Shown: positions 361 to 29,201 of the stretch, piece by piece
Numbering within the stretch: the stretch's first letter is position 1
Layout of the letters: the number at the start of each line of letters is the position of its first letter
DNA from: an uncultured Chroococcidiopsis sp.
GTDB lineage: Bacteria > Cyanobacteriota > Cyanobacteriia > Cyanobacteriales > Chroococcidiopsidaceae
Assembly (NCBI GenBank): GCA_964248365.1
Contig: CAXTYC010000001.1
Span: 1 to 64,000 of the forward strand
DNA length: 64,000 nucleotides
Direction: 5' to 3'
Translations under genes and position numbers: made by a program
The notes under the pieces: model-generated
Database searches by the model: none
What the model was told of the DNA's origin: nothing
What the model saw: the letters and a program-made list of their open reading frames with translations, nothing else

Positions 361-536
361 CTTGAGTAGTACCTCATTCACTTGTCAATCGCTGGTCAAC
401 TTTCTCGAAAAATATTTGCTCAAAAATATTATCTAGAGATTCAACGGTCAACTAGCCCCAACCGTCACAGCTATTGTCTGTAGCTACGGCACTTGCTAAT
501 TATCAATGTATTGCAAGTAATACAAGTACAACAACA

Positions 537-792: not shown

Positions 793-821
793 ATTCAAGA
801 GGATTGGTCAATCTGAGAAGG

Positions 822-1235: not shown

Positions 1236-1513
1236 TCAACGTCTTCCTGATCTCCGCCTCTACGCTCGGCTTTTTCACGCTCAACTCCCTCCCAATCCAG
1301 CAAAGGTTCGCCAGAGGCAACGATTTCCTCGCGAATCTGTTGTAACCTTTCGCCTAGCGTTGACTTAGACTTCGGTTCGGCTACTTGCCTGGTTGCAGTG
1401 GCTTTCTTTAATTCCAAAAACTCTACAAAATCAATCACTTCTTGTTGCCGATCAGGAGGTAGCGATCGCCATTTCTCCAGTAACAATTGTTCAGTGTCCA
1501 TATACCTCTCCAT
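1232..1513 (-). CDS. DUF2281-like antitoxin
   Basis: LLEKWRSLPPDRQQEVIDFVEFL signature; coupled to the PIN gene. Confidence 0.8.
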   Translation of the reverse strand: MERYMDTEQLLLEKWRSLPPDRQQEVIDFVEFLELKKATATRQVAEPKSKSTLGERLQQIREEIVASGEPLLDWEGVEREKAERRGGDQEDVE

Positions 1514-1861
1514 TTTCTAGTAACACTGTCTTGGTGGCTTTCTCTAACACCTGATGTTTTTTGTTTATAGTATCTTTATCTCTTGCAATAATTATTTTAC
1601 AGCTTTCTTATAAAAACAGGATTATTATTTAAATATAAATTTACCAAATTATTATTTGAAAATTTATTTTGAACCAAATATTTTAGATAGACATTTTCTT
1701 TAGTTCCAAGTCTTCAATTTTCTATATCTAGACTTGTACCTATCACATTGAGAGCGAAAATTTCAAAAATTATCACAAGGCGATTCGATTTTTTAGAAGC
1801 TTCAGACAAATCACTGTCAGTAAATATCCTACTAAATTACTAAAATTAGTAAGCATTCTTT

Positions 1862-4522: not shown

Positions 4523-4554
4523 ATCTTCCAAAATTTACTCCTTTTCACAAAACC

Positions 4555-5301
4555 TCACGACCGTGCAGCTTTTCGTTGTCCAGCAGGAATTACATATTCA
4601 AAACCAGGGCAGTTTCTCACAATTCCATCGCCGCTAGGATTCATTTTTTTGGGATTCTCCGTGTATTGCCGCTGGCAGTTTTTTCGCACCCGTAGCGCAA
4701 GACTTGCTAGTACGCGATTATTGACAGCATCGGCTGTGTTGTATTCATGAAGCTTGCCAGCAAAGAACGCTAGAGTCCCCCACGCCACTAATGCAGCAAT
4801 CGGCATCGCGTAGGCAAGTTTAACCGAATTTATGGCAATTTTCTTCGCTGCGTGGATTAAGAGCAGCACTTGCTTTTGTTCTTGAATCAGGCTAGAAGTC
4901 GCATCAACCAGACCAATTGAAATCGTCTGTAGATTTTGTCGCTCTGTATCCAGACTTTTGAGAGCGTCATCTAATTTTTGCTCTAAACTGCTGTGGCGAT
5001 CACCCAATGCTATCAGCCTGTCTTCAACTAGTTACGCCGACTGTTGGATCTCTTCTTTAGCTTGTACGATCCTGCCATCTGACCTGCCCAATTCTTCTAC
5101 TGCCGCAATATTTTGAGCCACGCAGAAATAGAAATCAAACAACTCGTTATCAAGAAAATATTGGTTGTCGCTCAACCACTCATATACGCGCTGTTGGGTA
5201 GTGGTAGGCTCACTCTTGAGTCTTTCGGTAAGCAAGGCTTGTAACTGGGCTTGTCGATCGCTCAGAGAAATTTTATTTCTACGACTGATTTGATTCATCA
5301 A
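4555..5301 (-). pseudogene. Mobilization-region coiled-coil/membrane protein split by an in-frame stop at 5032-5034
   Basis: ORFs 5032-5301 and 4555-5007 share a frame and are joined by ..SA*LVEDRLIALGDR..; C-terminal hydrophobic helix. Confidence 0.6.
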
Positions 5302-6065
5302 TTGTTTGCCCTGAGATTTTCTACGCTAAAGTCAGCCACAGCTAATACATCGTAGGCTCGGCGCAGGTATGCCCGTAACCCAGCTAGTTGAGCCGTACTA
5401 AATCCCTTGTAACGACGTGCCTCTGTAAAACTCAAGGTGTTTTTATAGATTTCCGTCGCCGTATCTTCTCTCAGCTTCGGTAAGTCTATGGCTCGGATAC
5501 CAAACTGCTGTATCAGTTCTGATGTGATGAAGCTATCGAAGCTATCCCACTCTTCGCACTTACCTAAATTTCTCACCAAAATATGCTTGACCTTATCCTG
5601 CATGAATTCTAGAGTCCGCAAAAAACCTTCATAACACTCCTGCGAATCATCGAGTAAATACCAGTTCTGAATTTCAACTCCTAGATCGATCGCGGCTGCT
5701 AGAATATCTCCAGCATTCAACCAGTGATTGAATCCTTCCTCTACATTTCCAGGTAAATCCAGCAAAACCAACTTTTCCAGCGCTAAATCCAGTATGCGAT
5801 CGGGAATCTTCAAATGGCGGTCTAGTTCGCTAAACTTCGTCGGCTGGACGAATTGGGGGTAAGCTTTAATAAAACTTTCCTGGCGGTCGGCATCCACTGC
5901 ATAGCAATCTAACCCTGCTTCCAAACAGTAAGCGGCTTTCAGCTTCGAGAGTAGAGTTTTGCCAACTCCACCCTTTTTACAATTTGATAGATGAATGGCG
6001 GGACGAGTGGGAACGATCGCATCCGTTTGCTCTGATACTACTTGGGATTGTTTAGCTCTAGCCAC
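5298..6065 (-). CDS. ParA/MinD-family ATPase (StbB/MobD-like)
   Basis: Deviant Walker A KGGVGKT, VDAD, LLDLPG; divergent from the relaxase. Confidence 0.8.
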   Translation of the reverse strand: MARAKQSQVVSEQTDAIVPTRPAIHLSNCKKGGVGKTLLSKLKAAYCLEAGLDCYAVDADRQESFIKAYPQFVQPTKFSELDRHLKIPDRILDLALEKLVLLDLPGNVEEGFNHWLNAGDILAAAIDLGVEIQNWYLLDDSQECYEGFLRTLEFMQDKVKHILVRNLGKCEEWDSFDSFITSELIQQFGIRAIDLPKLREDTATEIYKNTLSFTEARRYKGFSTAQLAGLRAYLRRAYDVLAVADFSVENLRANN

Positions 6066-6080
6066 AACTACCCACCTCTT

Positions 6081-6497
6081 TTATTTATTGGAGAACAATC
6101 GCTCGGCAGCTTCTTGCTTGATGTTTGGCAGAATGGCAGCAGGTTGAGTGTTGGCATCTTTAATCACTACCTCTGGTTTCCTAGTTGCTGGTGCAGGCAC
6201 GGCAGGAGGAAGAATAGAATCAGAGCGATCAAAGCTATCTCCTGCTTCTTTCTCCAGCTGGCGGCGATACTCCGTGTGGTATTGCTTCAAAGTAGCAGCA
6301 CTAATCTTGACTCCACTTTCGGCAATCGATCTTGCTAGATCGTCATATTCACAGCCCCTAGCCAAAGCCGCCTCAATTCTCAAATGCAATTTGGCTACTA
6401 ATTGCCTCAAATAACCAGGTTGGGCAGCTTTACTTTTCGTTTGATCAATTTTTTTGGCGATCGCCTTTTCTAAGAGGCTGAAGTCAGTTTCATTCAT
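6081..6497 (-). CDS. Putative oriT-accessory DNA-binding protein (StbA/TraK-like)
   Basis: IEAALARGCEYDDLARSIAESGVKISAATLKQY helix-turn-helix-like segment; first gene beside the putative oriT. Confidence 0.55.
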   Translation of the reverse strand: MNETDFSLLEKAIAKKIDQTKSKAAQPGYLRQLVAKLHLRIEAALARGCEYDDLARSIAESGVKISAATLKQYHTEYRRQLEKEAGDSFDRSDSILPPAVPAPATRKPEVVIKDANTQPAAILPNIKQEAAERLFSNK

Positions 6498-9855: not shown

Positions 9856-11471
9856 CAAGAAGAAACCCTAGAAGCAACAGGTCGCCATTTGAAGCAGTAC
9901 TCTGTTTAACGGGGGTGTTTGCACTGTGGTGGGCTGTGGAAAACCAAACAATAGCATTACTTCTGATTCAGAAACCTCACCTGATTCTGCCCTACCTAAT
10001 TCAGGAACTAGGGTTTTTCTGGGTCATAACTGGAGCAGTGGGAATCTTAGCTTTGTTGTGGTTCTTACTTGTTATCTCTGTCCCCACTTCTAACATCCTA
10101 CGGGGAGCCAAGATAGTTCCGTCCAGCAAACTCAAGACAATTTTAAAGCAGCAGCCTCAGCCCCGAAACCAGCCCCAGATGGAACTGGCTGGAATGCCTA
10201 TTCCATCTACATATGAAAATCGAGGAATTTTTGCCCCTGGTTCCCCAGGCAGCGGCAAAACCCAGGCAATTAGCCAATTAGTAGCTACCTTAAAACAGCG
10301 AACTGATTTCCGCGCAATCATATTCGATCGCAATGGCGAGTTGTTGGAGAAGTTGTACGACCCAACCAAAGATATAATCTTTAATCCTCATGATGCTCGT
10401 AGTTGCTATTGGACGCATATTCACGAGAAAGCACAACCAGCCACGATCGCTGCTGGTCTAATTCCGATGGAATCAACGCGCGAGCCTTTTTTCTCTAATG
10501 CTGGTCGAGCTGTAATGACAGAATTGTTCCGTAAAACCAGAAGCAACGCTGAGCTACTAGAGTTACTTCAAGCCGGTGCAGAGCAGCTAAAAGCTTTTCT
10601 AGCAGGCACGCTAGCCTATCGGTATTTAGAGGAAGCCAAAGTAGCTACCTCCGTGCTTTCAACCGCAGCTAATTATTGTCAGTTTTACGAATCTTTAGTT
10701 GTACCTCAAGCAAAGGCACTCAGCTTCTACCAGTGGGGAGCCGGCAACAGCCCTAAATGGATTTTTGTGACTCTCAATGAAGACGATACAGAACTGTTTA
10801 AACCCTTATACAGTCTTGCTTTTGAATTAATGCTCAAAGGATTGCTTTCTAATGGGCAGCGCAGTCGTAAAACTGCGATCGTGATTGATGAGTTGGGTGC
10901 GCTCAACCAGTTACCAAGCCTGAACCGATTATTGAGTGAAAGCCGCAAGTTTCTGGGCTGCCCCATCCTGGGAACTCAGACAGAAGCTCAAATTACCAAG
11001 ATTTACGGGAAAGAAGATACTCGAATTCTACTCCAAGGGGCGAAAACAAAGTTAATTCTCAATTGCTCCGATCCCCAAACTGCTGAGACAATGGCACAGA
11101 TTATTGGCAAGCAAGAACGAGTAGATTTCACTAATAATCACAATCGCAGTCACAATTACTCAGGCAAAGGAGCAGGTCATGGGAGTAGCGAGGGAGAGAG
11201 CGAGCAAATTCGAGAAGTATATGCAGTTATGCCTTCCCAATTGCAGGATTTACCCGATCTCACAGGTTATTTAAAAATCTCAGGACTGCCAGCAGCCCAA
11301 GTCAGGTTAAAAGTTCAACACTTTCCAGTGCAAGCTGAACGCTTTATTCCTCGCTCTCAAGCATTAACACAGCCTACCCCAGACCAGGCACAATCTGTTC
11401 AGTCAGTAAGAAATACGCAGAGTATTCAGGAACAGTGGCAGCGATTGCGATCGCAAATTTCTGGGGATTAA
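9852..11471 (+). CDS. Type IV coupling protein (TrwB/TraD family)
   Basis: Two N-terminal TM helices, GSPGSGKT, IVIDELGAL, ESRKF..ILGTQ; ATGA overlap with the relaxase stop. Confidence 0.92.
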   Translation: MTRRNPRSNRSPFEAVLCLTGVFALWWAVENQTIALLLIQKPHLILPYLIQELGFFWVITGAVGILALLWFLLVISVPTSNILRGAKIVPSSKLKTILKQQPQPRNQPQMELAGMPIPSTYENRGIFAPGSPGSGKTQAISQLVATLKQRTDFRAIIFDRNGELLEKLYDPTKDIIFNPHDARSCYWTHIHEKAQPATIAAGLIPMESTREPFFSNAGRAVMTELFRKTRSNAELLELLQAGAEQLKAFLAGTLAYRYLEEAKVATSVLSTAANYCQFYESLVVPQAKALSFYQWGAGNSPKWIFVTLNEDDTELFKPLYSLAFELMLKGLLSNGQRSRKTAIVIDELGALNQLPSLNRLLSESRKFLGCPILGTQTEAQITKIYGKEDTRILLQGAKTKLILNCSDPQTAETMAQIIGKQERVDFTNNHNRSHNYSGKGAGHGSSEGESEQIREVYAVMPSQLQDLPDLTGYLKISGLPAAQVRLKVQHFPVQAERFIPRSQALTQPTPDQAQSVQSVRNTQSIQEQWQRLRSQISGD

Positions 11472-13411: not shown

Positions 13412-13561
13412 GTCTCCCGTACTAATACCGAAATTTTTCGCAGGAAGTATAAAAACTTAATAAAAATTCTGTAGTAACACCCTTAGAAATCCGGTCACTG
13501 CCAAATTAGGCTCGAACCCAGCATACGTTTTGAGTCTATTTTAGTTTGGTTGGCGCAGTTC

Positions 13562-16429
13562 ATGTCCGAAATCTTCGCTTCTGTCGGGTCTATCGTCACT
13601 TGCCGCGATCGCCACTGGGTTGTTTTACCTTCCGAAAACCCAGACATCATTCGCTTGCGCCCATTAAGTGGAAGTGAAGACCAAATTTGCGGCATTTATC
13701 AATCGCTGGAAATAGACATAGAAGCGATCGCAAGAGCACAGTTTCCCCAACCACAACCAGAAGCAATCCAAGACCATGCTGCCATCCAACTGCTGATGGA
13801 TGCAGCCAGGTTGAGTTTACGCAGTGGTGCAGGACCGTTTCGCTGTCTGGGACGATTATCTGTTCGACCCCGCCCCTATCAACTCGTCCCCTTATTGATG
13901 GCACTGCGTCTAGATACAGTACGTTTACTAATTGCCGACGATGTAGGGATCGGGAAGACAATTGAAGCGGGATTAATTGCTCGCGAACTGCTCGATCGCG
14001 GTGAGGTCAAGCGCCTAGCAATTCTGTGTCCGCCCCAATTGTGCGACCAGTGGCAACGAGAATTGAGGGAAAAGTTTCAAATTGATGCGGTTGTCATTCG
14101 TTCTGGAACTGCGTCGAAACTAGAACGGGCAAAGCCGGAAGGCGCTGCTCACATCTTCGAGTATTACCGCCACATTATTGTCAGCCTCGACTACGCCAAA
14201 TCAGAGCGGCGGCGGGCAAGTTTCATCACCCACTGCCCCGATCTAGTCATTGTAGATGAAGCTCACACTTGCTCCCGTGCTAACTCTGAAGGCATTGCCG
14301 TACAACAGCGCCACCAGTTAGTACAGCAAATAGCAGCAAAACCAGACCGACACTTAGTTTTGCTCACAGCCACGCCTCACAGCGGAATTGAAGCTTCGTT
14401 CTTGTCGATCCTGGGCTTACTAAAACCAGAGTTTGAGCAACTTCACCTCGATACCCTCACCGAACAAGCGCGATGCCTGCGGCGGGCTTTGCCTACGCAA
14501 CTTGCCAATCATTTTGTGCAGCGCCGACGAGCAGACGTAAAACTGTGGCTGGGCAACGAAACGCCGTTTCCCGAACGAGAGGCATTAGAACTTCCCTATC
14601 GCCTTACTAAGGAATATCGCAGTTTATTTGAAGACGTATATAACCTGGCACGGGGGTTAGTCAAAACAGCAGATGACAGCCTCAGTTACGCTCAGAGGCG
14701 AGGACGGTACTGGTCAGCGCTAGCTTTGATTCGCTGCGTCATGTCTTCTCCGGCTGCCGCGATCGCCACCCTGACTCGACAGGCAAGTAAAGCAGGTAGC
14801 ACGAACGAGCTAGCTAGCGATTTAGATGAAGAGTTATTGGGTGCTTACGTATACGACCCTACCGAACAAGAGCAAGCTGTTGATGCCCCGCCAACCCTCG
14901 TGGTGGAACAAGGGCAGCAATCCTATGGCGATACAGAACGGCGTAAATTAAGAGCTTTCGTACAGGAAGCAGCAAAACTCCAAGGGGAGAAGGATAACAA
15001 ATTACAGGCAGCGATCGCAACTGTTGAATCTCTGCTCAAAGACGGGTTCAACCCCATCCTCTGGTGTCGCTACATTGCAACAGCTAACTATGTCGCCGCC
15101 GCACTGAAGCAGAAGTTGGAAAAGAAAGGCAGTAATATTCGCGTCCTGGCGATTACAGGAGAGCAATCGGAAGACGAACGGGAAAGCTATCTAGCCGATC
15201 TGCAATCTTCTCCACAACGGGTCATGGTGGCGACAGATTGCTTGAGCGAAGGGGTAAACCTGCAAGAGCATTTTAGTGGTGTGATTCATTACGATTTGCC
15301 TTGGAACCCGAATCGCTTAGAACAGAGAGAAGGGCGAGTTGACCGCTATGGGCAAACTGTCCCCGTTGTCAAGAGCTATTTGCTCTACGGTCAGGATAAT
15401 CCCGTTGATGGTGCAGTTTTAGACGTATTGATTCGCAAAGCAGTACGAATTCACAAGACTTTGGGCATTACCGTACCCGTACCGATGGATAGCGCCAGCG
15501 TCACAGAAGCAGTGTTTAAGTCTCTGTTCGATCGCGCCACCGACGCGCAGCAGTTATCTTTATTCGATTTATTGAACTCGGAAGAATCAAATCTGAACGA
15601 AGTGCATCAAAGCTGGGATCGGGCAGTAGAAAGGGAAAAACTCAGCCGCACTCGATTTGCTCAAAAGTCAATCAAACCGGAAGAAGTGCAGCAGGAGTTA
15701 TTGGAGTCCGATCGCATTTTAGGCAACGAAGAGGATGTAGAAAGGTTTGTCCTGTCGGCTGGCGATCGCCTGAATTGTTCCCTCATCAAGAAAAAGCAGG
15801 GCTGGTTGCTACCATCTCCACCTCAGTTTTTGAAAGCGGTGTTGGGAGATAAATCGCGCCTAATTTCTTTCACAACTCCCGCACCAGAAGGAGTAGAGTA
15901 CATCGGACGCAACCACCCATTAGTAGAAGGGTTAGCACGTCACTTACTGGAAGAGGCACTTAGCAACGTCTTAAATCCCACTGCTGCCCGTTGCGGCTTC
16001 ACTGTTACAGATGCAGTGGATAAGCGCACGACTATCTTATTATTGCGCCTGCGACACTTGCTAGAAAGTCCCAGCCATCAAAGCTTATTGGCAGAAGAGT
16101 GCCTTGTAGCAGGCTTTACCGGATCGCCCTCCAATCCCATTTGGTTGGAATCAGAAACATCAATCGCGCTGTTGCAAAAAACAGAACCAGTAGGCGACGT
16201 AGCGATCGCCATGAAGCGCCTAGAAGTAGCCGAATTGATCGCACGTATCGGGGAACTAGAAGACGAGTTACGGCAAATTGCCGAACGGCGATCGCATTCT
16301 CTATCTCAATCTCACCGCCGCGTTAGGGCAATGACTAAAGAAGGGCAGGTGCGAGTCAAGCCTCAACTGCCGATGGATATTTTAGGAATTTTAATTTTAC
16401 AGCCAGGGCAACGGAAGGTAAACAGATGA
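13562..16429 (+). CDS. SNF2-family helicase, DrmD-like
   Basis: LLIADDVGIGKTIEAG, VDEAH, LTATPH, SEGVNLQ, WNPNRLEQREGRVDRYGQ. Confidence 0.9.
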   Translation: MSEIFASVGSIVTCRDRHWVVLPSENPDIIRLRPLSGSEDQICGIYQSLEIDIEAIARAQFPQPQPEAIQDHAAIQLLMDAARLSLRSGAGPFRCLGRLSVRPRPYQLVPLLMALRLDTVRLLIADDVGIGKTIEAGLIARELLDRGEVKRLAILCPPQLCDQWQRELREKFQIDAVVIRSGTASKLERAKPEGAAHIFEYYRHIIVSLDYAKSERRRASFITHCPDLVIVDEAHTCSRANSEGIAVQQRHQLVQQIAAKPDRHLVLLTATPHSGIEASFLSILGLLKPEFEQLHLDTLTEQARCLRRALPTQLANHFVQRRRADVKLWLGNETPFPEREALELPYRLTKEYRSLFEDVYNLARGLVKTADDSLSYAQRRGRYWSALALIRCVMSSPAAAIATLTRQASKAGSTNELASDLDEELLGAYVYDPTEQEQAVDAPPTLVVEQGQQSYGDTERRKLRAFVQEAAKLQGEKDNKLQAAIATVESLLKDGFNPILWCRYIATANYVAAALKQKLEKKGSNIRVLAITGEQSEDERESYLADLQSSPQRVMVATDCLSEGVNLQEHFSGVIHYDLPWNPNRLEQREGRVDRYGQTVPVVKSYLLYGQDNPVDGAVLDVLIRKAVRIHKTLGITVPVPMDSASVTEAVFKSLFDRATDAQQLSLFDLLNSEESNLNEVHQSWDRAVEREKLSRTRFAQKSIKPEEVQQELLESDRILGNEEDVERFVLSAGDRLNCSLIKKKQGWLLPSPPQFLKAVLGDKSRLISFTTPAPEGVEYIGRNHPLVEGLARHLLEEALSNVLNPTAARCGFTVTDAVDKRTTILLLRLRHLLESPSHQSLLAEECLVAGFTGSPSNPIWLESETSIALLQKTEPVGDVAIAMKRLEVAELIARIGELEDELRQIAERRSHSLSQSHRRVRAMTKEGQVRVKPQLPMDILGILILQPGQRKVNR
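14475..14495 (+). repeat. 21-nt short dispersed repeat (SDR5-like) inserted in frame into a HIP1 site
   Basis: GCGAT[GCCTGCGGCGGGCTTTGCCTA]CGC; removing the 21 nt restores GCGATCGC and keeps the frame. Confidence 0.75.
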
Positions 16430-19400
16430 GTGTAGTTGCAAGCACGTTTGTAGGAATCCAAATCGAGGGCAACCTAATTGCCCCAGATATAACAGCAGAA
16501 ATGCTAGCTGGGACGATTAAAGGACAAGCACCGGAAGACTTTAACTTTACTAAAACTGACAAACTGGCTGATGAAATCGCGATCGCCTGGGGAGATGCCA
16601 AGGCATATTGGGCAGCATTTCAACGGGCATTGGCGAGACTACCTGAAAATGACTTAGCAACAACTGTCACCCGCGAACAGTGGGTCGTACCACTATTACG
16701 CAGTTTAGGTTATGACCCAGTTTATACAGCCAAAGCTGAAGTGATAGACGGACAAACTTTTGCCCTTTCCCACCGTACCGATCCTGGGGAAGATAAGCCG
16801 CCCATTCATGTTGTTGGCTGTCGCGTCAAGTTAGAACAGCGTCCGCCTAGCGGTACGCCGAGACTTTCTGCCCATGCCCTGATGCAAGAATACCTCAATC
16901 GCACCGAGCATCTGTGGGGGATTGTCACTAATGGGTTGCAGTGGCGGCTGTTGCGAGACTCTTCGTTAATGACTCGCCTCACCTACATCGAGTTTGACCT
17001 AGAACAAATTCTCAACAACGAGAACTTTGCAGAATTTGGTTTATTCTACCGCCTCTTCCACCGATCGCGACTACCACAGGGAGCAGACGATGCCGATGCG
17101 TGTTTGCTGGAATACTACCATCAAGAGGCGATTCAGCAGGGGGGACGGGTACGCGATCGCCTGCGCGATGGTGTAGAAAAAGCTTTGGTACTGCTGGGTA
17201 CTGGGTTTCTGCAACATCCAAACAACGGAAAGTTACGGCAATCCTTTGAGTCGGGAGAACTGGCTGACACCGTATACTATCGCCAGTTGTTACTGCTGAT
17301 TTACCGCTTGCTGTTCTTGATGGTGGCAGAAGCGCGAAATTTATTACTGACGGACGAAGATCCAGAGAAAGCCCGCATTTATTTGGAATACTACAGCGTC
17401 ACGCGCTTGCGAAATTTGGCAGAACGCCCCAGCTATCGGCGTGAAGGTTTCCAAGATTTATGGCAAGGGCTACGGGTAACGTTTCGGTTGTTTGATGAAA
17501 ACTGGCGCGGGAGAGAGTTAAAGCTTTCTCCTCTCAATGGTGACTTATTTGGATCGAAGACACTCAAGCATTTAGATGAGTATGCGATCGACAATCACGA
17601 ACTGTTGTTGGCAATTCGGCAGCTATCCTTATACGAACAAAAGGGACAATCACGGCGGGTGAATTATGCGGCGCTGGATGTGGAGGAACTGGGCAGCGTC
17701 TATGAAAGTTTGCTCGATTTTCATCCGCAGATTCAGCTACGGCAGGGAATTTATGAGTTTCAGTTAGTAACGGGAAGCGATCGCAAAACCACTGGTTCTT
17801 ACTACACGCCACCAGAACTAGTAGGGCAGTTGATTAAGAGTGCTTTGGAACCCGTCATTGAGGAGAAGTTGAAAGAGGCGAAAACTGTCTCAGAAAAAGA
17901 AGCGGCATTACTCAGCCTTAAGGTGTGCGATCCGGCTTGCGGTTCGGGACATTTCCTGTTGGCAGCAGCGCGGCGGATTGGCAAGGAGTTGGCGATCGCC
18001 AGAACGGGGGAAGCACAACCAGGGGTAGAACCGTTACGCAAAGCCATACGGGATGTGGTGCAAAACTGCATTTATGGAGTTGACTTGAACCCGTTAGCGG
18101 TCGATCTGTGCAAAGTCGCTTTATGGATTGAGGGCTTTAATCGTGGCTTTCCGCTGAATTTTCTCGATCACCGGATTAAGTGCGGTAATTCCTTGGTGGG
18201 GGTGCTGGATTTAGCTTGTTTAGATGAGGGTATCCCTGATGAGGCGTTTAAACCCGTAACTGGCGATGATAAACAATTAGCTAGCCGTTGGAAGAAAGAA
18301 AATAAAAAACAACGCGAGACAGATTTAGAAGGACAATTATCTTTAGATTTTGAGGGCAATTTAGAACAGGATAGATCGCATTATGCCCAAACTGCTAAAG
18401 AAGTGGGGGCGATCGCAGAAATTACAACTGGTGATGTCAGGCAAAAGCAAACCCAGTATCAACAAAGTCGTCAAGATAAAAGTTGGTGGCGAGACTATTC
18501 TGCTTGTAACCTGTGGACGGCTGCATTTTTCATGCCACTGACAGAACAAAATCTGCAATTATTGCCGACAACAGCAGCGTTAACACGATTATTACAGGAA
18601 TCAAAAATCGAGATTCAGGAGTCACACCAATCACTACTCCCCACTCCCCACTCACTACTCCCTCTCATCGAAGCAGCAAATAAGCTAGCGCAGGAGAAAC
18701 ACTTTTTCCATTGGTGTTTAGAGTTTCCTGAAGTATTTGAAGCTGATGGATTTGATTGCGTGTTAGGAAATCCGCCTTGGGAACGAATTAAGTTACAGGA
18801 AAAGGAGTTTTTCGCTTCTCGCAGTGCCGAGATTGCTAATGCTGCAAATAAGGCAGCGCGGGAGAAGTTGATTAAAGAATTGCCAAAAACTAATTCAATG
18901 TTAGCGCAAGCATTTGAAGAGGCGAAACATGATGCTGAAGCGCAAAGTAAATTTATCCGCGAATCAGTCAGATTTCCCCTAACTGCTGTGGGAGATATCA
19001 ATACTTATGCTGTATTTGCTGAAACTATGAGAAAGCTAATTTCTCCTAATGGCAGGCTTGGCGTTATTGTGCCTACGGGTATTGCTACTGATGATACTTG
19101 CAAAAAGTTTTTTGGAGATTTGATTCAAAATCAGGCTTTGGTAAGTTTGTATGATTTTGAGAATAGAGAAGCATTATTTACTGCTGTACATCGTAGTTAT
19201 AAATTTTCTCTACTTGCTATTAGTGGTAAAGCGATCGCTCAGGGAAATTTTGCCTTCTTCCTTACTCAGCAAAGGCAATTAGATAATCCAGCACGTCTAT
19301 TTAAGCTTTCTCCTCAAGATATTGCTTCACTAAATCCCAATACCCTCACTTGTCCAGTTTTTAGAACTCGCACTGATGCAGAAATCACCAAAAAAATCTA

Positions 19401-20829
19401 TCAGCGCGTACCTGTTTTAGAAAATGAACGCACTGAGGTAAACCCTTGGGGTATTTCATTTATGACTATGTTTCATATGTCAAATGATAGCGGGTTGTTT
19501 GTTATGGGAGTGGGGAGTAGTGAGTTGGGAGTAGGGAGTAGTAAGTTGGGAGTAGTAAATGAAAATTTAGTTCCTTTGTATGAAGCCAAGATGTTTCACC
19601 AGTTCGATCATCGTTGGGCGACGTATGAGGGAGTGGGGAGTAGTGAGTTGGGAGTAGAAACTAGGGATGTGACTTTGGAGGAAAAATGCGATTCAAATTA
19701 CCGAGTAAAACCGCGTTATTGGGTCAATCGTAATGAAGTAGAAAATAAGTTAAGTGATAAGTGGAAAAAAGGTTGGCTTTTGGCTTTTAGAGATATTTGT
19801 AGGGCAACTGATGAGCGTACTGCTATTTTTAGCTTAGTACCTAAAGTTGCTGTTAATCATAAAGCACCATTACTTTTTACAAGCCAAAATAAACCTGAGT
19901 TTTATTGTTTATTGATTGCTAATTTAAATAGTTTAGTTTTAGATTATGTGACAAGACAAAAAATTGGTGGAACATCACTAAGCTATTTCATCCTCAAACA
20001 ACTCCCTGTAATTCCTCCAGAAGCATACACCCAAGAAGATATCAAATTTATCAGCAGCCGCGTCCTCGAATTAGTCTACACCACTTGGGATATGCAACCC
20101 TTTGCCCAAGACGTTTGGCGGGAGTTGGGAGTTGGGAGTAGGGAAGTAGTTATTAAAGAGTGGGAAAGTAATTATGGACAATCGATCTATTCGTTCCTAT
20201 CAAGATTTAATGGTTTGGCAAGAGGGGATGAATCTAGCAGAAATGTGTTATGTCCTAACGAAAGAGTTTCCCAAAGAGGAAATTTACGGGATGATCTCAC
20301 AAATCCGCAGAGCAGCAGCTTCGATACCAGCGAACATAGCGGAGGGTTACGGAAGGGAGAATCGGGGCGAATACATTCAATTTCTGAAGATAGCTCAAGG
20401 CTCGCTCAAGGAACTGGAGACTCATCTAATCTTAGCAGAACGAGTGAAACTAACAACGAATCAAGCAGTAGATCCAATTCTGAAGCAATGCGAAACAGTG
20501 GGCAAAATGCTTCGTTCTTTAATTCGCTCACTCCAGAACAAAAACTAGAATTTTTTCTCACCACTCCCCACTCCCCACTCCCCATTCCCCCATTCATTTG
20601 GAATAGCGAAAGACGAGCATTATTAAGAGCAGAATTAGACGCATATTATGCCAAACTCTACGGACTTACCCGCGACGAACTCCGTTATATTCTCGATCCT
20701 GCTGATGTCTACGGTTCTGATTTTCCCAGCGAAACCTTTCGCGTATTGAAGAACAACGAAATCAAACAATTTGGCGAATATCGCACCCAAAGATTAGTGC
20801 TTGAAGCGTGGGATAGAATGTTTGGATAA
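16426..20829 (+). CDS. Large N6-adenine DNA methyltransferase (Eco57I/type IIG-like, DrmMI-like)
   Basis: GSYYTPP, DPACGSGHFL (motif I), GNPPW (motif IV), N-terminal WGIVTNG; C-terminal TRD and RAELDAYYAKLYGL; ATGA overlap with the SNF2 gene. Confidence 0.92.
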   Translation: MSVVASTFVGIQIEGNLIAPDITAEMLAGTIKGQAPEDFNFTKTDKLADEIAIAWGDAKAYWAAFQRALARLPENDLATTVTREQWVVPLLRSLGYDPVYTAKAEVIDGQTFALSHRTDPGEDKPPIHVVGCRVKLEQRPPSGTPRLSAHALMQEYLNRTEHLWGIVTNGLQWRLLRDSSLMTRLTYIEFDLEQILNNENFAEFGLFYRLFHRSRLPQGADDADACLLEYYHQEAIQQGGRVRDRLRDGVEKALVLLGTGFLQHPNNGKLRQSFESGELADTVYYRQLLLLIYRLLFLMVAEARNLLLTDEDPEKARIYLEYYSVTRLRNLAERPSYRREGFQDLWQGLRVTFRLFDENWRGRELKLSPLNGDLFGSKTLKHLDEYAIDNHELLLAIRQLSLYEQKGQSRRVNYAALDVEELGSVYESLLDFHPQIQLRQGIYEFQLVTGSDRKTTGSYYTPPELVGQLIKSALEPVIEEKLKEAKTVSEKEAALLSLKVCDPACGSGHFLLAAARRIGKELAIARTGEAQPGVEPLRKAIRDVVQNCIYGVDLNPLAVDLCKVALWIEGFNRGFPLNFLDHRIKCGNSLVGVLDLACLDEGIPDEAFKPVTGDDKQLASRWKKENKKQRETDLEGQLSLDFEGNLEQDRSHYAQTAKEVGAIAEITTGDVRQKQTQYQQSRQDKSWWRDYSACNLWTAAFFMPLTEQNLQLLPTTAALTRLLQESKIEIQESHQSLLPTPHSLLPLIEAANKLAQEKHFFHWCLEFPEVFEADGFDCVLGNPPWERIKLQEKEFFASRSAEIANAANKAAREKLIKELPKTNSMLAQAFEEAKHDAEAQSKFIRESVRFPLTAVGDINTYAVFAETMRKLISPNGRLGVIVPTGIATDDTCKKFFGDLIQNQALVSLYDFENREALFTAVHRSYKFSLLAISGKAIAQGNFAFFLTQQRQLDNPARLFKLSPQDIASLNPNTLTCPVFRTRTDAEITKKIYQRVPVLENERTEVNPWGISFMTMFHMSNDSGLFVMGVGSSELGVGSSKLGVVNENLVPLYEAKMFHQFDHRWATYEGVGSSELGVETRDVTLEEKCDSNYRVKPRYWVNRNEVENKLSDKWKKGWLLAFRDICRATDERTAIFSLVPKVAVNHKAPLLFTSQNKPEFYCLLIANLNSLVLDYVTRQKIGGTSLSYFILKQLPVIPPEAYTQEDIKFISSRVLELVYTTWDMQPFAQDVWRELGVGSREVVIKEWESNYGQSIYSFLSRFNGLARGDESSRNVLCPNERVSQRGNLRDDLTNPQSSSFDTSEHSGGLRKGESGRIHSISEDSSRLAQGTGDSSNLSRTSETNNESSSRSNSEAMRNSGQNASFFNSLTPEQKLEFFLTTPHSPLPIPPFIWNSERRALLRAELDAYYAKLYGLTRDELRYILDPADVYGSDFPSETFRVLKNNEIKQFGEYRTQRLVLEAWDRMFG
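20174..20548 (+). CDS. Four-helix-bundle protein (23S rRNA intervening-sequence protein family), nested in the +1 frame of the methyltransferase
   Basis: SYQDLMVWQ..FPKEEIYGMISQIRRAAASIPANIAEGYGR..FLKIAQGSLKELETHL is the full family signature; own ATG and stop. Confidence 0.92.
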   Translation: MDNRSIRSYQDLMVWQEGMNLAEMCYVLTKEFPKEEIYGMISQIRRAAASIPANIAEGYGRENRGEYIQFLKIAQGSLKELETHLILAERVKLTTNQAVDPILKQCETVGKMLRSLIRSLQNKN

Positions 20830-20860
20830 TTCGTAATTTGTAATTCGTAATTCGTAATTT
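20827..20860 (+). repeat. STRR-type heptamer array (TAATTCG)n
   Basis: taattcg taatttg taattcg taattcg taattt starting at the MTase stop codon. Confidence 0.8.
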
Positions 20861-20960
20861 AAGAGTTATTAATTATCGATTTTATTGACAGCAATATAAG
20901 TTTATTACTATATTTTATGGTAGTTTAATAATCAGTTAGAGTAGCTCGTGGTTGGACTTT

Positions 20961-21727
20961 GTGAAAACAGATGCTCTTTTTTACGAACTGATTAAAGAAT
21001 TGCCACAAATCTTTTTTGAATTGATTGATAAACCTGAAGTTAACTTAAATGCATATGAGTTTACTGCACCACAAATTAAACAACAAGCTTTTCGGCTGGA
21101 CGGTTTATTCTCTACTCTTACAGGATTTGAAGGCGAACCTTTGTATTTTGTAGAATTTCAAACTTATAAAGATGAGGAATTCTATGAACGGCTATTTGGA
21201 GAGATTTTTGTTTATTTTTGCTAGTATCAACCCTCCAATCCAAATTGGTATGCAATTGTAATCTACGATAGGCGCAGTCACGAAGTTCCGCCACACCCCC
21301 GCTATCAGAATTTGATGGAAAATCATGTGCGCCGCGTCTACATTAATGAACTTTCTACAGATACAGAGCAGATTTGCGAATTGGAGTGGCAAAATTATTT
21401 GTAGAAACTCCAACAAAAACTCTTTCCTTAGCGCAGCAACTTATTAATCAGACAACAGAAGAATTACTAGATGAACGCCTTCAGCAAAAAGTGATAGCAT
21501 TTATCCAAGCCATCGTTTTCTACAAGTTTCCAAATCTGACTCTAGAGGAAATTGAAACCATGCTGGACTTAAGTGAATTTAAGAAAAGTCGATTATATGA
21601 AAGCGTTTTAACAAAAACCAAGTTAGAACTTGTGCCAAAGCTGTTAGAAAAAGGACTTAGCGTTCAGGAAGTTGCAGACTTATTAGAGTTAGATGTAGAA
21701 GAAGTAAGGAAGGCAGCACGAGAGTAG
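20961..21727 (+). pseudogene. Rpn/DUF2887-family (putative transposase/nuclease) pseudogene
   Basis: MKTDALFYEL..QAFRLDGLF..YFVEFQ; stop at 21222-21224 and frameshift near 21370; C-terminus KLELVPKLLEKGLSVQEVADLLEL. Confidence 0.8.
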
Positions 21728-23941: not shown

Positions 23942-24149
23942 AGTTTGTGAAAGTATATTAATGAAATTATTATAAGTATTAATACTAATCATTTAGCCAA
24001 AAATACAAAAATTTCAGCTATAGCTGTGATAGATATATCGATTTGAGTGAGATCGCACTCATCATGTGATATGTAAAACTAAATTGGGCATCTTAAGACA
24101 AGAACACAGGCGATCGCCTGGGAAAAATACTTCCGTGCAGCAGTTGTTT

Positions 24150-27100
24150 ATGTCAGATGCCCCCAGCCTCACAACTACCCTAGATATCTTTAATTTACGG
24201 GATGAAGTCATTGCCGACTACCGCCGCTACATTGAAAGCTTCCTGAAAATCCGCGATCCACGAGTAGAGGCATTTGTCGATCGCGAACTGGAACGGGGCG
24301 AACTGTGGCGCGATCCGCTCGTACAACTCAATCCGTCCTACAAAGGGGGTGCTACTGTCACCGAACTAGTACAGCAGGGGGTTCTCTATCCCGACTGCCA
24401 GCAATACTTTTCTAGAAACGGCAAACCCTACATCTTCCACTACCACCAAGAACAAGCATTTCTCGCCGCCCAGCGCCAGGAATCCTACGTTCTCACCACA
24501 GGCACGGGTTCGGGGAAAAGTATGACCTATGTAGTGCCAATTTTTGACGACTTGCTCCGCCATCGGGAGATTAAAGGCGTGAGGGCAATCCTGGTTTACC
24601 CGATGAATGCCTTAATTAACTCTCAAAAAGAAGAGTTTGACAAATTTCTAAGCCAAGTTCCCAATAGCCATATCCGCGTCGAGAAATACACTGGACAAGA
24701 AAGCCTAAAGCAAAAGACAGAAATTCAGAACAATCCGCCCCAAATTCTGCTGACCAACTACGTGATGCTAGAGCTAATGCTCTCTCGCACTCATGAAGAT
24801 CAGTTAGTTGCTTCCCCTGACCTAAAATTTCTAGTACTTGATGAATTACATACCTATCGCGGTCGTCAAGGTGCAGATGTTGCCATCCTGATCCGTAAAC
24901 TCCGCCAACGCTGCGGTAAAAACCTGCTTTATATCGGCACTAGCGCCACCATGTCCACCGAAGGCACTAGAGACAACCGCCGCCAAACTGTGGCTGGAGT
25001 AGCCAGTAAGTTATTTGGCGTGGCAGTCAAGCCAGAAAACGTCATTGATGAAACTTTGGAGCGTTCCATCCAACTTCCTGCTCCCAGTCCTGAAGAACTC
25101 CAGCGCAGCATTACAGTAAGCTTACCTCCAGAGTCAGAGCGATCGCTCACAGGTTTTAAATCCCATCCCCTAAGCGCCTGGATCGAGATGAACTTTGGTC
25201 TAGCCCAGGAGCAAGGGCATTTGATCCGCCGGACTCCGATTTCCTTAGCAGCAGGAGCCGAGCAGCTCTCTGAGCAAACCCAAATTCCAGTTGATACCTG
25301 CCGAGAAACCCTGAAACAAATGTTTCTCTGGGGTAGCAAAACGAAAGGATTGGCATTTCGCCTGCATCAATTTATCTCTCAAGGGGGCAGCGTCTACGCC
25401 ACGATTGAGTCGAGAGATAACCGCTTTCTCACCTTAGAAGGGCAGTATGCTACTACGAACGATCGCCTACTCTATCCCCTCGTCTTTTGCCGTGAATGCG
25501 GACAAGACTACTACGTGGTGCGCTACGACAAGGATAACTATACCGTCAGTCCCCAACTGGCGATCGCTCTCGATAGCAATGACGATGACGTGGATGAAGG
25601 CTACCTAACCTTAGACGAACCTGGGCTTTGGAATACTGGCGATGAAGATCGTCTCCCCGATAGCTGGTTTAATGACACCAAAAGGCAAGGTCGGGTTGCT
25701 AAAAAGGAATACGTTCCTCACATTCCCCAAAAGCTGCAAGTCCTTCCTAACGGGAAAGTTACCAACTCCTTACTAGAAGGAAAGGCTTGTTGGTTTGTCC
25801 CCAAACCGTTTCTGTTCTGTCCTAACTGTGGTGTCGTGCATGACAAGAAAAAGAACGAGTTTACTAAACTGTCTCGACTTAGTAGCGAAGGTCGTAGCAC
25901 TGCCACAACTCTTTTATGCCTTTCCACAGTTAACCGCTTAAAATCCAGTTCTGCCGTCAAACCCGAAGCAGCCAAAATCCTCAGCTTCACCGATAATCGC
26001 CAGGATGCGTCCTTACAAGCTGGACATTTCAACGATTTCGTTCAAACCAGCTTTCTGCGGGCAGTTTTGAATAAAGCACTCCAAGCGAATCAACGATTGA
26101 CGCACAGTATATTAGCAAGCGAAGTTGTCAAGCATATGGGTTTATCCCAAACTGACTATGCAATTGGGCCTGCTGAGTTTGGTCCTGGTAAGAAGCGCAA
26201 CGAGAGAATTTTTCAAGATTTAATTGAATACCGCCTCTACGAAGACTTGCGCCGAGGCTGGCGCATCGTGCAACCTAATTTAGAACAATGCGGTCTGCTG
26301 GCAATCGAGTATGACGGACTTGAGGAAATCTGCGAAGACACTCAAATTTGGCAGCAGTCTCTCCATCCCCTATTATTACAAGCTACGCCAGCACAAAGAT
26401 TATTTGTCGCTAAAGCTTTGCTCGATCAGCTACGTAAAGAACTGGCGATTGATGCGGCGCTACTACAAAGCGATCGCCTGGAGCAACTCAAACGTGAAGT
26501 AACGCAGGCAATTAAAGATCCTTGGGCATTCGACATTAACGAACGCCTGCACGAAGCTACTTGGACTTCCAGCGCCAGTAGTAACTCGGACAGAGTGAAA
26601 GTTAAACTCACCTCTCGTAGTAAAATTGGTCGCTTCCTCCGTTCCCCTGCTACCTGGTCGGGGCTACAACAACCATTAGCGGAATCAGAGTATAGCCAAC
26701 TGATCGGGGCATTAATCGAGATCTTGGGTGCGTCAGGATATCTCAAGATTGAAGGGCAGTTCGTGCAGCTACGCATTGACTGCATGATTTGGCAAGCTCA
26801 AACTGCTGACACAATTCCCGCCGATCCGCTGACATCCAAGCGTCTCCAAGGTAGCGAAGAAGTACAAATTGAAGTCAATCGATTTTTCCAAAACTTTTAT
26901 CAAGACAATGCTCAGCAACTTCACAGTTTGGAAGGACGAGAACATACAGGTCAAGTCAGCAACGAAGCCCGTCAAGCAAGGGAAGATAGGTTTCGTCAGG
27001 GACAACTATCATCCTTATTCTGCTCCCCGACAATGGAACTGGGCATCGATATTTCAGATTTAAATGCCGTCCACCTGCGGAATGTGCCGCCAACTCCTGC

Positions 27101-29201
27101 CAACTACGCTCAACGCAGTGGTCGGGCAGGACGTAGCGGACAGGAAGCACTGGTAATTACCTATGCCTCAGCTGGTAGCGGACACGACCAGTATTTCTTT
27201 CAACGCCAGGAACAGATGGTAGCAGGGGCAGTAGCGCCACCGAAGTTGGAGTTGGGCAATGAAGATTTGATGAAATCTCACATTTACTCGCTCTGGCTAG
27301 CCCATACAGGTGTTTATCTAGGGGAATCGATGAATCAAATTCTTGATTTAGATTTAGAAGCATACCCCCTAAAAGATTCGGCGCGATCGCAACTTACTCT
27401 TACCCCTACTAGCGTTGAAACTTGTATTCGAGCCGCACAAACCATTCTTGCCGATACCTTCTGTCAAGCCGACCTCAACCGGACATCCTGGTATTCAACA
27501 GATTGGCTGCGCTACACGCTCGAAAATGCTTTACTTGGGTTTGACCGAGCCTGCGATCGCTGGCGCAAACTTTACAGCGATGCCGTATTCCAATTGCAAG
27601 CAGCTCGAAAAATTGTAGACCGTTCTGCCAAAGGTAGCGTTACCCAAGAGGAACGCAAGCTAGCCCAAACGCAAGAGCGAGAAGCCCAGAGGCAAATCGA
27701 CTTGCTGGTAGGGCAAGTCAGCCCGAATCAAAGTCAAACCGAGTTAGAGTTTTACCCTTACTGTTACTTTGCTGCCGAAGGCTTTCTACCAGGATATAAC
27801 TTTCCCCGTCTCCCAGTCCGCGCTTATATCCCTGCTGGCGACGCGGGTAGATTTGTCTCTCGTCCCCGCGTGGTGGCAATTCGCGAGTTTGCCCCTAGCA
27901 ATGTCGTTTACTACGAAGGGTCTAAATTTCAAATTGCCAAAATGCGAGTTTCCGTAGGTGGGATTGAGGGTAGATACCTCCGCGTCAGCGTTTGTCCTAG
28001 CTGCGGCTACTTCCATGAGGGGGATGATTCCCTGCGCGACACTTGTGAAAACTGTGGTGCGAGAATTGTAGCCGATCGCGATGGCAACCCCGCCAAACTC
28101 AACCGCGTGCTGGAAGTCGAGACAATGATCACTCGCAGACGAGAACGAATTACTTGTGACGAGGAAGAACGGCTCAAGTACGGTTACAACGTCACGACAC
28201 ATTTTCGCTACGCGCCCCAAAAGCAAGAGCTAGCAACAGTTATAGCAGCGGATGGAACGCACCTATTACGGTTAATCTATGGTGAAACGGCAAAAATTCG
28301 GCGGATTAATCGGGGTTTAAGGCGCGATCGCACTGAACGCGGATTTAAGCTCGATGCAGCAACAGGAGTCTGGGGCGATCGCTCGACGAACGACACACCC
28401 CAGGAGAATTTACAAACAGAAGTCAACTTGATGGTTGACGATACTTGTAATATTCTGCTTGTCGAACCAGTCAACATTCCAACTGGGAATTCTGAAGCAT
28501 TTCTCGCCACTGTTCAGTTTGCTCTTGAACGAGCTATTCAAGCAGTATATAAACTTGAAGCGGACGAACTAGCATCCGTTCGCTTGGGTCAAGGGCAACA
28601 CTTACTATTTTGGGAAGCCGCCCAAGGAGGAGCAGGCGTTCTTTCCCAAATCCTTGAAGATCCTCAAGCCTTCAGACAGCTTGCTAATGCTGCGTTAGAT
28701 ATTTGCCACTTCCAACAAGAGAAGCAAAGCTGTACCAAAGTTTGCTACCAATGCCTATTATCCTACCGCAATCAGTTCGATCATCCACTATTGGATCGCC
28801 ACCTAATTCGCCCTTGGTTGAATCGACTAGGTAGCAGTACCATAACCCGTCAAGCTGCAAGTGGTTCCCGCGAAGCTCAATACCAGCAATTGTTCCAGCA
28901 GACAGATCCCAACTCTAATTTTGAGCGAATTGTTTTAGCAGAGATCGATCGCCGAGGGTTAAAACTACCGGATGCTGCCCAAGAGTTAATTCCTGAAGCT
29001 AACTGCAAACCAGACTTTATCTACAGGAATGCCAAAATTGCTGTCTTCTGCGATGGTTCGATTCACGATCGCCCAGAACAACAACAGCAAGACAAAGTTG
29101 AGCGCGATAATCTCAGATATGCGGCTGGGTATTATGTTTTAACTCTGCGACATGATGGGGATTGGCAACGGCAGCTAGAAGTTTTGGTTTCTTTGTTGTA
29201 A
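24150..29201 (+). CDS. Large DEAD/DEAH helicase with DUF1998 and C-terminal Vsr/DUF559-like nuclease
   Basis: TGTGSGKS, LDELHTYRGRQGAD, TSAT, SFTDNRQDAS, TMELGIDI, QRSGRAGR; DUF1998 WEAAQGGAG..CTKVCYQCLLSYRNQ; tail PDFIY..IAVFCDGSIHD. Confidence 0.9.
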   Translation: MSDAPSLTTTLDIFNLRDEVIADYRRYIESFLKIRDPRVEAFVDRELERGELWRDPLVQLNPSYKGGATVTELVQQGVLYPDCQQYFSRNGKPYIFHYHQEQAFLAAQRQESYVLTTGTGSGKSMTYVVPIFDDLLRHREIKGVRAILVYPMNALINSQKEEFDKFLSQVPNSHIRVEKYTGQESLKQKTEIQNNPPQILLTNYVMLELMLSRTHEDQLVASPDLKFLVLDELHTYRGRQGADVAILIRKLRQRCGKNLLYIGTSATMSTEGTRDNRRQTVAGVASKLFGVAVKPENVIDETLERSIQLPAPSPEELQRSITVSLPPESERSLTGFKSHPLSAWIEMNFGLAQEQGHLIRRTPISLAAGAEQLSEQTQIPVDTCRETLKQMFLWGSKTKGLAFRLHQFISQGGSVYATIESRDNRFLTLEGQYATTNDRLLYPLVFCRECGQDYYVVRYDKDNYTVSPQLAIALDSNDDDVDEGYLTLDEPGLWNTGDEDRLPDSWFNDTKRQGRVAKKEYVPHIPQKLQVLPNGKVTNSLLEGKACWFVPKPFLFCPNCGVVHDKKKNEFTKLSRLSSEGRSTATTLLCLSTVNRLKSSSAVKPEAAKILSFTDNRQDASLQAGHFNDFVQTSFLRAVLNKALQANQRLTHSILASEVVKHMGLSQTDYAIGPAEFGPGKKRNERIFQDLIEYRLYEDLRRGWRIVQPNLEQCGLLAIEYDGLEEICEDTQIWQQSLHPLLLQATPAQRLFVAKALLDQLRKELAIDAALLQSDRLEQLKREVTQAIKDPWAFDINERLHEATWTSSASSNSDRVKVKLTSRSKIGRFLRSPATWSGLQQPLAESEYSQLIGALIEILGASGYLKIEGQFVQLRIDCMIWQAQTADTIPADPLTSKRLQGSEEVQIEVNRFFQNFYQDNAQQLHSLEGREHTGQVSNEARQAREDRFRQGQLSSLFCSPTMELGIDISDLNAVHLRNVPPTPANYAQRSGRAGRSGQEALVITYASAGSGHDQYFFQRQEQMVAGAVAPPKLELGNEDLMKSHIYSLWLAHTGVYLGESMNQILDLDLEAYPLKDSARSQLTLTPTSVETCIRAAQTILADTFCQADLNRTSWYSTDWLRYTLENALLGFDRACDRWRKLYSDAVFQLQAARKIVDRSAKGSVTQEERKLAQTQEREAQRQIDLLVGQVSPNQSQTELEFYPYCYFAAEGFLPGYNFPRLPVRAYIPAGDAGRFVSRPRVVAIREFAPSNVVYYEGSKFQIAKMRVSVGGIEGRYLRVSVCPSCGYFHEGDDSLRDTCENCGARIVADRDGNPAKLNRVLEVETMITRRRERITCDEEERLKYGYNVTTHFRYAPQKQELATVIAADGTHLLRLIYGETAKIRRINRGLRRDRTERGFKLDAATGVWGDRSTNDTPQENLQTEVNLMVDDTCNILLVEPVNIPTGNSEAFLATVQFALERAIQAVYKLEADELASVRLGQGQHLLFWEAAQGGAGVLSQILEDPQAFRQLANAALDICHFQQEKQSCTKVCYQCLLSYRNQFDHPLLDRHLIRPWLNRLGSSTITRQAASGSREAQYQQLFQQTDPNSNFERIVLAEIDRRGLKLPDAAQELIPEANCKPDFIYRNAKIAVFCDGSIHDRPEQQQQDKVERDNLRYAAGYYVLTLRHDGDWQRQLEVLVSLL

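Follow-up and report, generated by a model that had tools for sequence, protein, structure and literature searches.

Rickettsia palindromic elements (RPE), reportedly described by Ogata and co-workers in 2000, are said to be selfish palindromic DNA lying in frame within protein-coding genes. In the case of REP/REPIN elements, the genes of RAYT transposases are flanked by inverted repetitive extragenic palindromic (REP) sequences. The 23S ribosomal RNA (rRNA) of Coxiella burnetii is interrupted by an intervening sequence (IVS) of 428 nucleotides (nt) with an S23p gene, which is excised by RNase III and whose open reading frame (ORF) is in decay and apparently not expressed (PMC4990558). Avd, the accessory protein of diversity-generating retroelements, belongs to a related family with a four-helix-bundle fold (PMC10053308). 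For the G-rich heptamer repeats of Xanthomonas, Rehm et al. describe 70-75 convergent pairs, and the terms 23S, intervening, S23 and four helix are absent from the text of that paper (PMC4692102). Here, a four-helix-bundle gene of the same family as the 23S rRNA intervening sequence proteins (PF05635) is described, which is nested in a second frame within an uninterrupted DNA methyltransferase gene, on the first 64,000 nt (the window) of contig CAXTYC010000001.1 of an uncultured Chroococcidiopsis sp. (GCA_964248365.1). No paper describing a PF05635 gene within the coding frame of another gene emerged from a literature search, most subscription journals and supplements lying outside its reach.

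The nested ORF was found to encode a complete protein of 124 amino acids in the +1 frame relative to its host, as the original prediction had stated, and hidden Markov model (HMM) comparison matched it to PF05635 (23S_rRNA_IVP) over profile positions 1-105 of 106, at E 7.6e-39 and with 132.6 bits where the cut-off is 33.8. The solved structure 2GSC_A matched residues 6-122 at E 4e-24, with 2RLD_A matching at 7.5e-6. Across this ORF the host frame contains no stop codon and the third frame contains 15. The host ORF itself was matched by PF07669 (1.1e-21) and by the PADLOC model DrmMI (PDLC02643, 5.5e-87), with catalytic motifs I (DPACGSGHF) and IV (NPPW) intact. Beyond the cassette its conserved C-terminus resumes, as had been claimed, at PFIWNSERRALLRAELDAYYAKLYGL, the last 79 amino acids being 98.7% identical to same-genus orthologues.

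Alignment with orthologues, which had been proposed as the means of defining the junctions, resolved the cassette as 474 nt that replace 15 nt. Of the 400 other genomes of the order, 72 gave a match to an orthologue of the methyltransferase, and in nearly all orthologues so matched the blocks flanking the cassette site are approximately four codons apart. DNA comparison with two cassette-less orthologues (G170, 81.0% identical over 1272 aligned amino acids, and the same-genus G186, 83.6% over 1278) showed the flank downstream of the cassette to be almost unchanged, and no target-site duplication was seen. At the same site, the orthologues L032 (G269) and L033 (G188) were found to possess inserts of 77 and approximately 30 residues, respectively, without a four-helix-bundle gene. 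The G269 insert retains a leader-like LRRLILEQWQSN, and the P(I/L)PPF junction of cassette-bearing genes is present in both; from their sequences, these inserts look like decayed cassettes, that is, in-frame deletion scars.

A stop in the host frame arises where a nested codon ends in T and the next starts with AA, AG or GA (a risk junction). Given the nested protein and the codon usage of the genome (267,054 codons from 494 long ORFs), the probability of an open host frame was calculated to be 4.6e-5, and permutation of the synonymous codons of the nested ORF left the frame open in 23 of 20,000 trials. In the window copy, T was found before none of the 32 risk codons, compared to 27 of the 92 other codons. 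All 29 of the closest relatives among the 400 genomes of the order have from 4 to 16 stops in the host-like frame, and a read-through profile search of 401 genomes returned 106 matches, 99 of which carry stops. Because of the calculated probability and of the stops in all 29 closest relatives, the open host frame is, on statistical grounds, not due to chance, and there is selection against stops.

The arrangement was found to recur. Fourteen nested cases were examined on DNA (thirteen in methyltransferases and one in a histidine kinase), at several sites and in both cyanobacteria and Chloroflexota, and in all 14 the host frame is open, which contradicts the possibility that homologous cassettes inside genes usually disrupt the host frame. 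Among the 80 closest relatives fetched (75-79% identical; 185,579 species genomes), seven have no stop in the host-like frame, and these seven sit in stop-free spans of 817-1501 amino acids that are homologous to the window methyltransferase, with the cassette at the site used in the window and at two others. The window's site is occupied in Herpetosiphon (L073) and Chloroflexus islandicus (L084), whose hosts are 45% identical to that of the window, and protein P0078 likewise carries the cassette at this shared site. In Phormidium (L076), an Ardenticatenaceae metagenome-assembled genome (MAG; L078), Kovacikia (L081) and a Chloroflexi MAG (L094), the cassette lies just before motif I (DPACGSGHF), while in Nodosilinea (L075) it is found in the N-terminal region of the methyltransferase. 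In the sample of the order, six of the 106 profile matches lie in long open frames of 371-1670 amino acids, the window gene included. The five further hosts are all DNA methyltransferases: an Eco57I-like enzyme, two DUF1156 proteins with one shared site, a methyltransferase C-terminal fragment (read by eye) and a gene whose cassette precedes motif I. The nested frames are intact in all of these long-open-frame matches.

Pooling of 13 nested cassettes showed T to be present before none of 346 risk junctions, compared to 253 of 1218 others, with permutations of the individual cassettes leaving the frame open in 10 to 6481 of 20,000 trials, rising with guanine plus cytosine (GC) content. Comparison of the L075 and L076 cassettes identified differences at nested codon positions 1, 2 and 3 in the numbers 5, 1 and 32, amounting to 6 amino-acid changes in the nested protein and 33 in the host frame; the other six pairs of nested cassettes show the same third-position pattern. 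For the window cassette and that of L073, the corresponding values are 19, 16 and 60, with 29 amino-acid changes in the nested frame as against 63 in the host frame. Since substitutions fall mainly at the third codon position of the nested gene, the four-helix-bundle gene is the constrained frame. By these statistics, purifying selection acts on the amino-acid sequence of the nested frame, and on the host frame only against stop codons.

Among non-nested cassettes, the host-like frame was found open in 0 of 53 below 47% GC, 1 of 12 at 47-53%, 2 of 21 at 53-58% and 5 of 11 at 58% or above. The first of these figures contradicts the idea that the frame would stay open by chance in most such genes. 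Given this trend, an open second frame would seem to cost little where DNA is rich in GC, whereas at 43% GC, as in the context found here, selection would be needed to maintain it. In eight GC-rich cassettes from Alphaproteobacteria (L100, L114, L116, L124, L125, L128, L129 and L137), the host-like frame is open for 150-174 amino acids, over cassette and arms alone, and is closed beyond them; these open frames may be chance in GC-rich DNA or the trace of a nested past.

A profile made from eight read-through segments (A1) was scored against 1.84 billion representative proteins, giving 397 proteins at E of 1e-3 or below and 160 at 1e-10 or below. Among the best 150 matches, 47 proteins have at least 300 amino acids, and 24 of these 47 are methyltransferases, assigned by Pfam to Eco57I/MmeI/N6_Mtase (19), DUF1156 (3) and N6_N4_Mtase (2). 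The remainder comprise hybrid histidine kinases (5), Ser/Thr kinases (2), nSTAND1 (STAND NTPase) proteins (2), single proteins with DUF3516 and Big_5, and 12 with no family. In the histidine kinases (P0049, P0058, P0069, P0107 and P0129), the insert always lies before position 37-38 of the HATPase_c profile, with the N-box strand on one side and the G1 box on the other. The Ser/Thr kinases (P0043 and P0081) have it after profile position 132-133, beyond the catalytic loop; in P0081, the one complete case, this is between HRDLKPANILL and DFG. From these motifs, the kinase insert points are taken to be beta-hairpin turns. One histidine-kinase case was confirmed on DNA, in a Caldilineaceae MAG (L186) with a host span of 1576 amino acids, where the nested gene is intact and its frame stands in the same relation to that of the host; this is the only locus among 77 for which a tblastn search found the nested gene. 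Nested members group together on a tree of 110 four-helix-bundle proteins, with 6 changes of the label compared to a mean of 12.6 after shuffling (0 of 500 shuffles as low). As 50 of the 103 inner branches of this tree are open and nestedness was itself the ground for including five of the 13 nested rows, it does not separate one origin of nesting from many.

The cassette is bounded by complementary heptamer arms, and these were found to pair as three 6-bp blocks with further pairs, in keeping with the stacked helices originally proposed, in both the minimum free energy (MFE) and centroid folds of positions 20100-20620 (MFE -144.8 kcal/mol, z -1.98). The duplex of the two flanks has a z of -4.1 against 200 shuffles. 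All seven PF05635 loci of the window genome lie between a tandem array of units of approximately 7 nt and its reverse complement, with the unit differing from locus to locus. Three of the seven loci are frameshifted and one contains a stop, the window cassette being the only one inside a gene; the four broken loci (G000 C16:69653-69970, C7:115779-116092, C5:3679-3995 and C3:33356-33671) still stand between complementary arrays. Among 107 relatives, an exact complementary arm within 160 nt of the ORF was identified in 80 at a length of at least 10 nt and in 60 at a length of at least 14 nt, compared to 83 and 1, respectively, among 2992 random 375-nt segments of the window genome used as a control.

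Evidence of movement is provided by the cassettes of L075 and L076, which share approximately 91% identity over the stretch bounded by the outermost 5' and 3' arm units (the first and the last, respectively), are unrelated outside these limits, and occupy different sites of different methyltransferases. As they are alike only from arm to arm, the mobile unit is arm-gene-arm. In genome G293, all seven copies examined (L265-L271) are a 100% identical unit of approximately 558 bp with sharp ends, in which the heptamer arms and four-helix-bundle gene lie inside an outer terminal inverted repeat of approximately 22 bp, and which is present in at least 11 copies; by its sequence, this cassette looks to be carried by a multiplied vehicle resembling a MITE (miniature inverted-repeat transposable element).

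Heptamer arrays are also widespread in the window genome, where 3210 period-7 arrays of at least 21 nt were counted, in 526 unit classes and at approximately one per 1.7 kb, the commonest unit being AGGGGCT (298 arrays). With 526 classes for seven PF05635 loci, a one-to-one link between heptamer classes and these loci was not supported. The nested protein may, as the original prediction proposed, bind such repeats. Inverted arrays flank other genes too, according to a strict census requiring a 12-nt exact match, which recovered one of the seven family loci. The methyltransferase gene itself holds five tracts of the GGGAGT/ACTCCC heptamer family, in both orientations.

No Rfam family, including rRNA and group I and II introns, matches positions 19400-21000, and the 158-amino-acid read-through segment has no significant Pfam family (the best, HemX, at E 0.0029, is below its cut-off), which leaves it without an intein or Hint domain. 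A scan of positions 19900-20800 gave no sigma-70-like promoter, and no terminator-like site was seen in the cassette or just 5' of it. Among the sequencing runs searched, no RNA run was found to contain the stretch, and none of the runs shared more than 0.08 of its words. The leader preceding the nested gene encodes a peptide pattern, (I/L)xExWxxN, that recurs in L073 and the G269 remnant.

We consider it probable that this is a mobile cassette of the IVS type, which host translation traverses to give a disordered loop and whose own protein is started internally. According to this explanation, a discrete cassette of approximately 470 nt lies in a short linker of variable length near the C-terminus of a methyltransferase borne on a mobile element. 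A single alternative frame of the cassette can be stop-free, namely that starting one base before each nested codon, and since the cassette is in phase with it, host ribosomes would read straight through, yielding a methyltransferase with approximately 153 extra hydrophilic residues that are probably disordered. Synthesis of the four-helix-bundle protein would start internally on this mRNA, at position 20174, and the arm stem, opened by the translating ribosome, may couple or modulate both products. On this view the cassette is one of a recurrent class favouring DNA methyltransferases. The suggestion in the original prediction of an IVS-like element in an mRNA, tolerated as a loop of approximately 150 amino acids under dual-coding selection, is supported by the codon statistics, the absence of the cassette from orthologues and the further nested cases. 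As regards the role of the nested protein, a first lead is that it may be a ring-forming oligomer binding structured nucleic acid, because five chains are on record for each of its solved relatives (2GSC and 2RLD) and the family is related to Avd.

Several points weigh against this explanation. Read-through translation, internal initiation and methyltransferase activity are steps that we infer from the sequence. An AlphaFold2 model of the C-terminal 371 residues has a mean predicted local distance difference test (pLDDT) score of 51.5, with the insert at 26-38 and the flanking helices at 73-89, and no secondary structure is predicted over approximately residues 169-248 (model numbering). This model is compatible with a disordered loop and lends it weak support, being poor overall and too poor to place the two junctions of the cassette as spatial neighbours. 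A survey of genomes had been proposed to test whether host frames stay open and arms complementary; the former held in 14 of 14 cases, but of 12 nested cassettes no more than seven had arm pairing clearly above shuffles, the five without it being L073, L081, L084, L094 and L185 (200 shuffles each; by this crude duplex test, clearly above means a z of -2.2 or lower with at most five of the 200 shuffles as low). The preference for methyltransferases may in part be a bias of profile A1, as this was built from methyltransferase-hosted copies. Independence of the nested cases is also lacking, since L075/L076 and L182/L185 are close pairs. Furthermore, the window methyltransferase is 81-84% identical to cassette-less cyanobacterial orthologues, compared to 45% to those bearing a cassette at the same site.

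An alternative is that RNase III cuts the arm stem as in rRNA, which would free the cassette RNA and split the methyltransferase mRNA, the cassette then acting mainly as an expression switch or throttle, or yielding split products, with translation through it being incidental. This is consistent with the pairing of the arms in both predicted folds and with an anatomy that is the same as that of 23S rRNA intervening sequences, for which excision by RNase III is reported in Coxiella (PMC4990558). However, RNA processing does not need the host frame to be free of stops, whereas every nested case has it open and T is absent from all 346 risk junctions of the 13 cassettes tested. In addition, a ligation route for RNase III products is not known in bacteria. 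Removal or bypass of the cassette at the RNA or translation level, offered by the original prediction beside tolerance, likewise gains nothing, because neither would need an open frame. Processing by RNase III could take place beside read-through and modulate it; the open frame is beyond what it can explain, and as an explanation of the locus it is quite unlikely.

The read-through segment could instead have been exapted, so that it now serves the methyltransferase, for instance as a regulatory loop or flexible tether, and is kept for itself. Its persistence across distant hosts at one site (L073, L084 and P0078) would agree with this. Set against this, the host-frame sequence evolves two to five times faster than the nested protein, with 5 of 119 columns invariant, and orthologues manage without the insert, G269 and G188 carrying shortened ones at the same site, which leaves exaptation very unlikely. 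Repeat-tract phase variation of methyltransferases is established, for example in mod genes, and as the gene has five tracts that belong to one heptamer family, changes by 7-nt steps might toggle the methyltransferase. As the tracts are short (three to four imperfect units) and the insertions are all multiples of 3 nt (45, 45, 18 and 474), such a contingency switch is nonetheless highly improbable. That the methyltransferase is simply disrupted with a fortuitously open frame, or that the nested ORF is a dead relic, is scarcely credible: copies of PF05635 do decay (three of the seven loci in the genome are frameshifted and one has a stop), but the probability of 4.6e-5, a full-length host 81-84% identical to its orthologues with intact catalytic motifs, a nested ORF scoring 132.6 bits with substitutions at third positions, and the recurrence of the arrangement all stand against it.

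The features of the locus are presented in Table 1. The SNF2-type helicase and the methyltransferase probably form one operon. With respect to a complete DISARM gene set (DrmA, DrmB and DrmC), the DpdE/DrmD-like SNF2 helicase alone adjoins the methyltransferase, and the large helicase downstream scores best as DruE. Given the nearby TrwC relaxase, coupling protein and helicases, the methyltransferase sits on or beside a conjugative element with defence genes. Immediately 3' of the methyltransferase stop codon, at positions 20830-20860, a different heptamer array, (AATTCGT)n, was identified, followed at 20952-21727 by a DUF2887 gene in two ORFs (profile positions 1-84 and 138-200), which is probably a pseudogene since it is split.

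Table 1. Positions in the window of the cassette, its parts, its host gene and neighbouring features.
Feature	Position	Strand	Basis or remark
TrwC relaxase and TrwB-type coupling protein, upstream of the methyltransferase	6865-11471		Domain matches
SNF2-type helicase, DpdE/DrmD-like	13550..16429	+	Stop overlaps methyltransferase start; domain/PADLOC matches
Host gene, 1467-amino-acid Eco57I/N6-adenine (DrmMI-like, type IIG-like) DNA methyltransferase, uninterrupted	16426..20829	+	Domain HMMs
In-frame 45-nt insertion with ACTCCCC-type array	18607..18651	+	Absent from G170 and G186
In-frame 45-nt GGGAGT-type array insertion	19504..19548	+	Absent from G170 and G186
In-frame 18-nt GGGAGT-type insertion	19639..19656	+	Absent from G170 and G186
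Inserted cassette, 474 nt (158 host-frame codons), replacing 15 nt (GYDGE) of orthologues	20116..20589	+	Protein and DNA comparison
5' arm, GGGAGTT GGGAGTT GGGAGTA GGGAAGTAG	20120..20149	+	Host frame reads ELGVGSREV
Leader	20160..20173	+	Shine-Dalgarno-like purine-rich GGGAAAG 6-12 nt 5' of nested ATG; putative role
Nested gene, 124-amino-acid PF05635 four-helix-bundle protein	20174..20548	+	+1 frame relative to host; HMM, structure match, substitution pattern
3' arm, (CACTCCC)3 CATTCCC	20561..20591 (approx.)	+	Host frame reads TPHSPLPIP
DruE-like helicase of 1711 amino acids with MZB and DUF559-like ends, downstream	24066-29201		Domain matches

If the explanation favoured here is true, the locus would represent a gene-in-gene insertion without splicing, in which the guest is read in one frame and the host in another, and selection at synonymous sites sustains both. 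It would connect defence methyltransferases with a very large protein family whose function is unknown and with the bacterial heptamer repeats, which are unexplained, and the insertion points identified (methyltransferase linkers and those of the histidine and Ser/Thr kinases) would be natural test cases for dual-coding selection and for the tolerance of enzymes to large loops. It would also serve as a warning for annotation, as gene callers would report one of the two genes, or the read-through segment would be called a new domain. A wider reading, which we put forward tentatively and regard as rather unlikely, is that PF05635 cassettes are one transcript-dwelling mobile family residing in rRNA, operon spacers and coding frames, whose Avd-like protein binds the hairpin of its own arms and so controls mobility (possibly through an RNA or single-strand intermediate) as well as host expression, the nested gene in defence methyltransferases then being a translationally coupled regulator or partner and not a passenger.

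With the 23S rRNA intervening sequences the window cassette shares a PF05635 protein, size (428 nt compared to 474 nt), an end stem enclosing the ORF and residence in the transcript of another gene (PMC4990558). It differs in lying in a protein-coding ORF and not in 23S rRNA (helix 25 or 45), and in being read in a second frame held open by selection, with no excision needed. Unlike the Coxiella ORF, which is described as decaying (PMC4990558), the nested ORF of the window is under purifying selection. From Avd the window protein is set apart by its score of 27.3 bits with the bAvd model PF22296, below the cut-off of 40, and by the absence of a reverse transcriptase from the 14 neighbouring ORFs scanned between positions 2201 and 31306, template and variable repeats not having been searched for. 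Homing endonuclease genes in inteins and group I introns are similar in that a mobile gene resides within a host gene that is not destroyed, but no splicing element was identified here (Rfam, Pfam), and the insert stays in the mRNA and, as it would seem, in the protein. As in the REP/REPIN-RAYT arrangement, a gene stands between inverted copies of a repeat dispersed through the genome; unlike RAYT, however, the encoded protein is a 124-amino-acid helical bundle without a recognisable nuclease or transposase domain, and the 526 heptamer classes are not matched one-to-one to the seven loci. Finally, the cassette resembles RPE in being mobile DNA with hairpin ends that is inserted in frame, would add a translated segment to the protein surface and is tolerated by the host protein, and the three bare heptamer-array insertions in the window methyltransferase behave in an RPE-like manner. 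Unlike RPE, which carry no gene, the window cassette holds a conserved PF05635 gene in another frame, making it dual-coding DNA.

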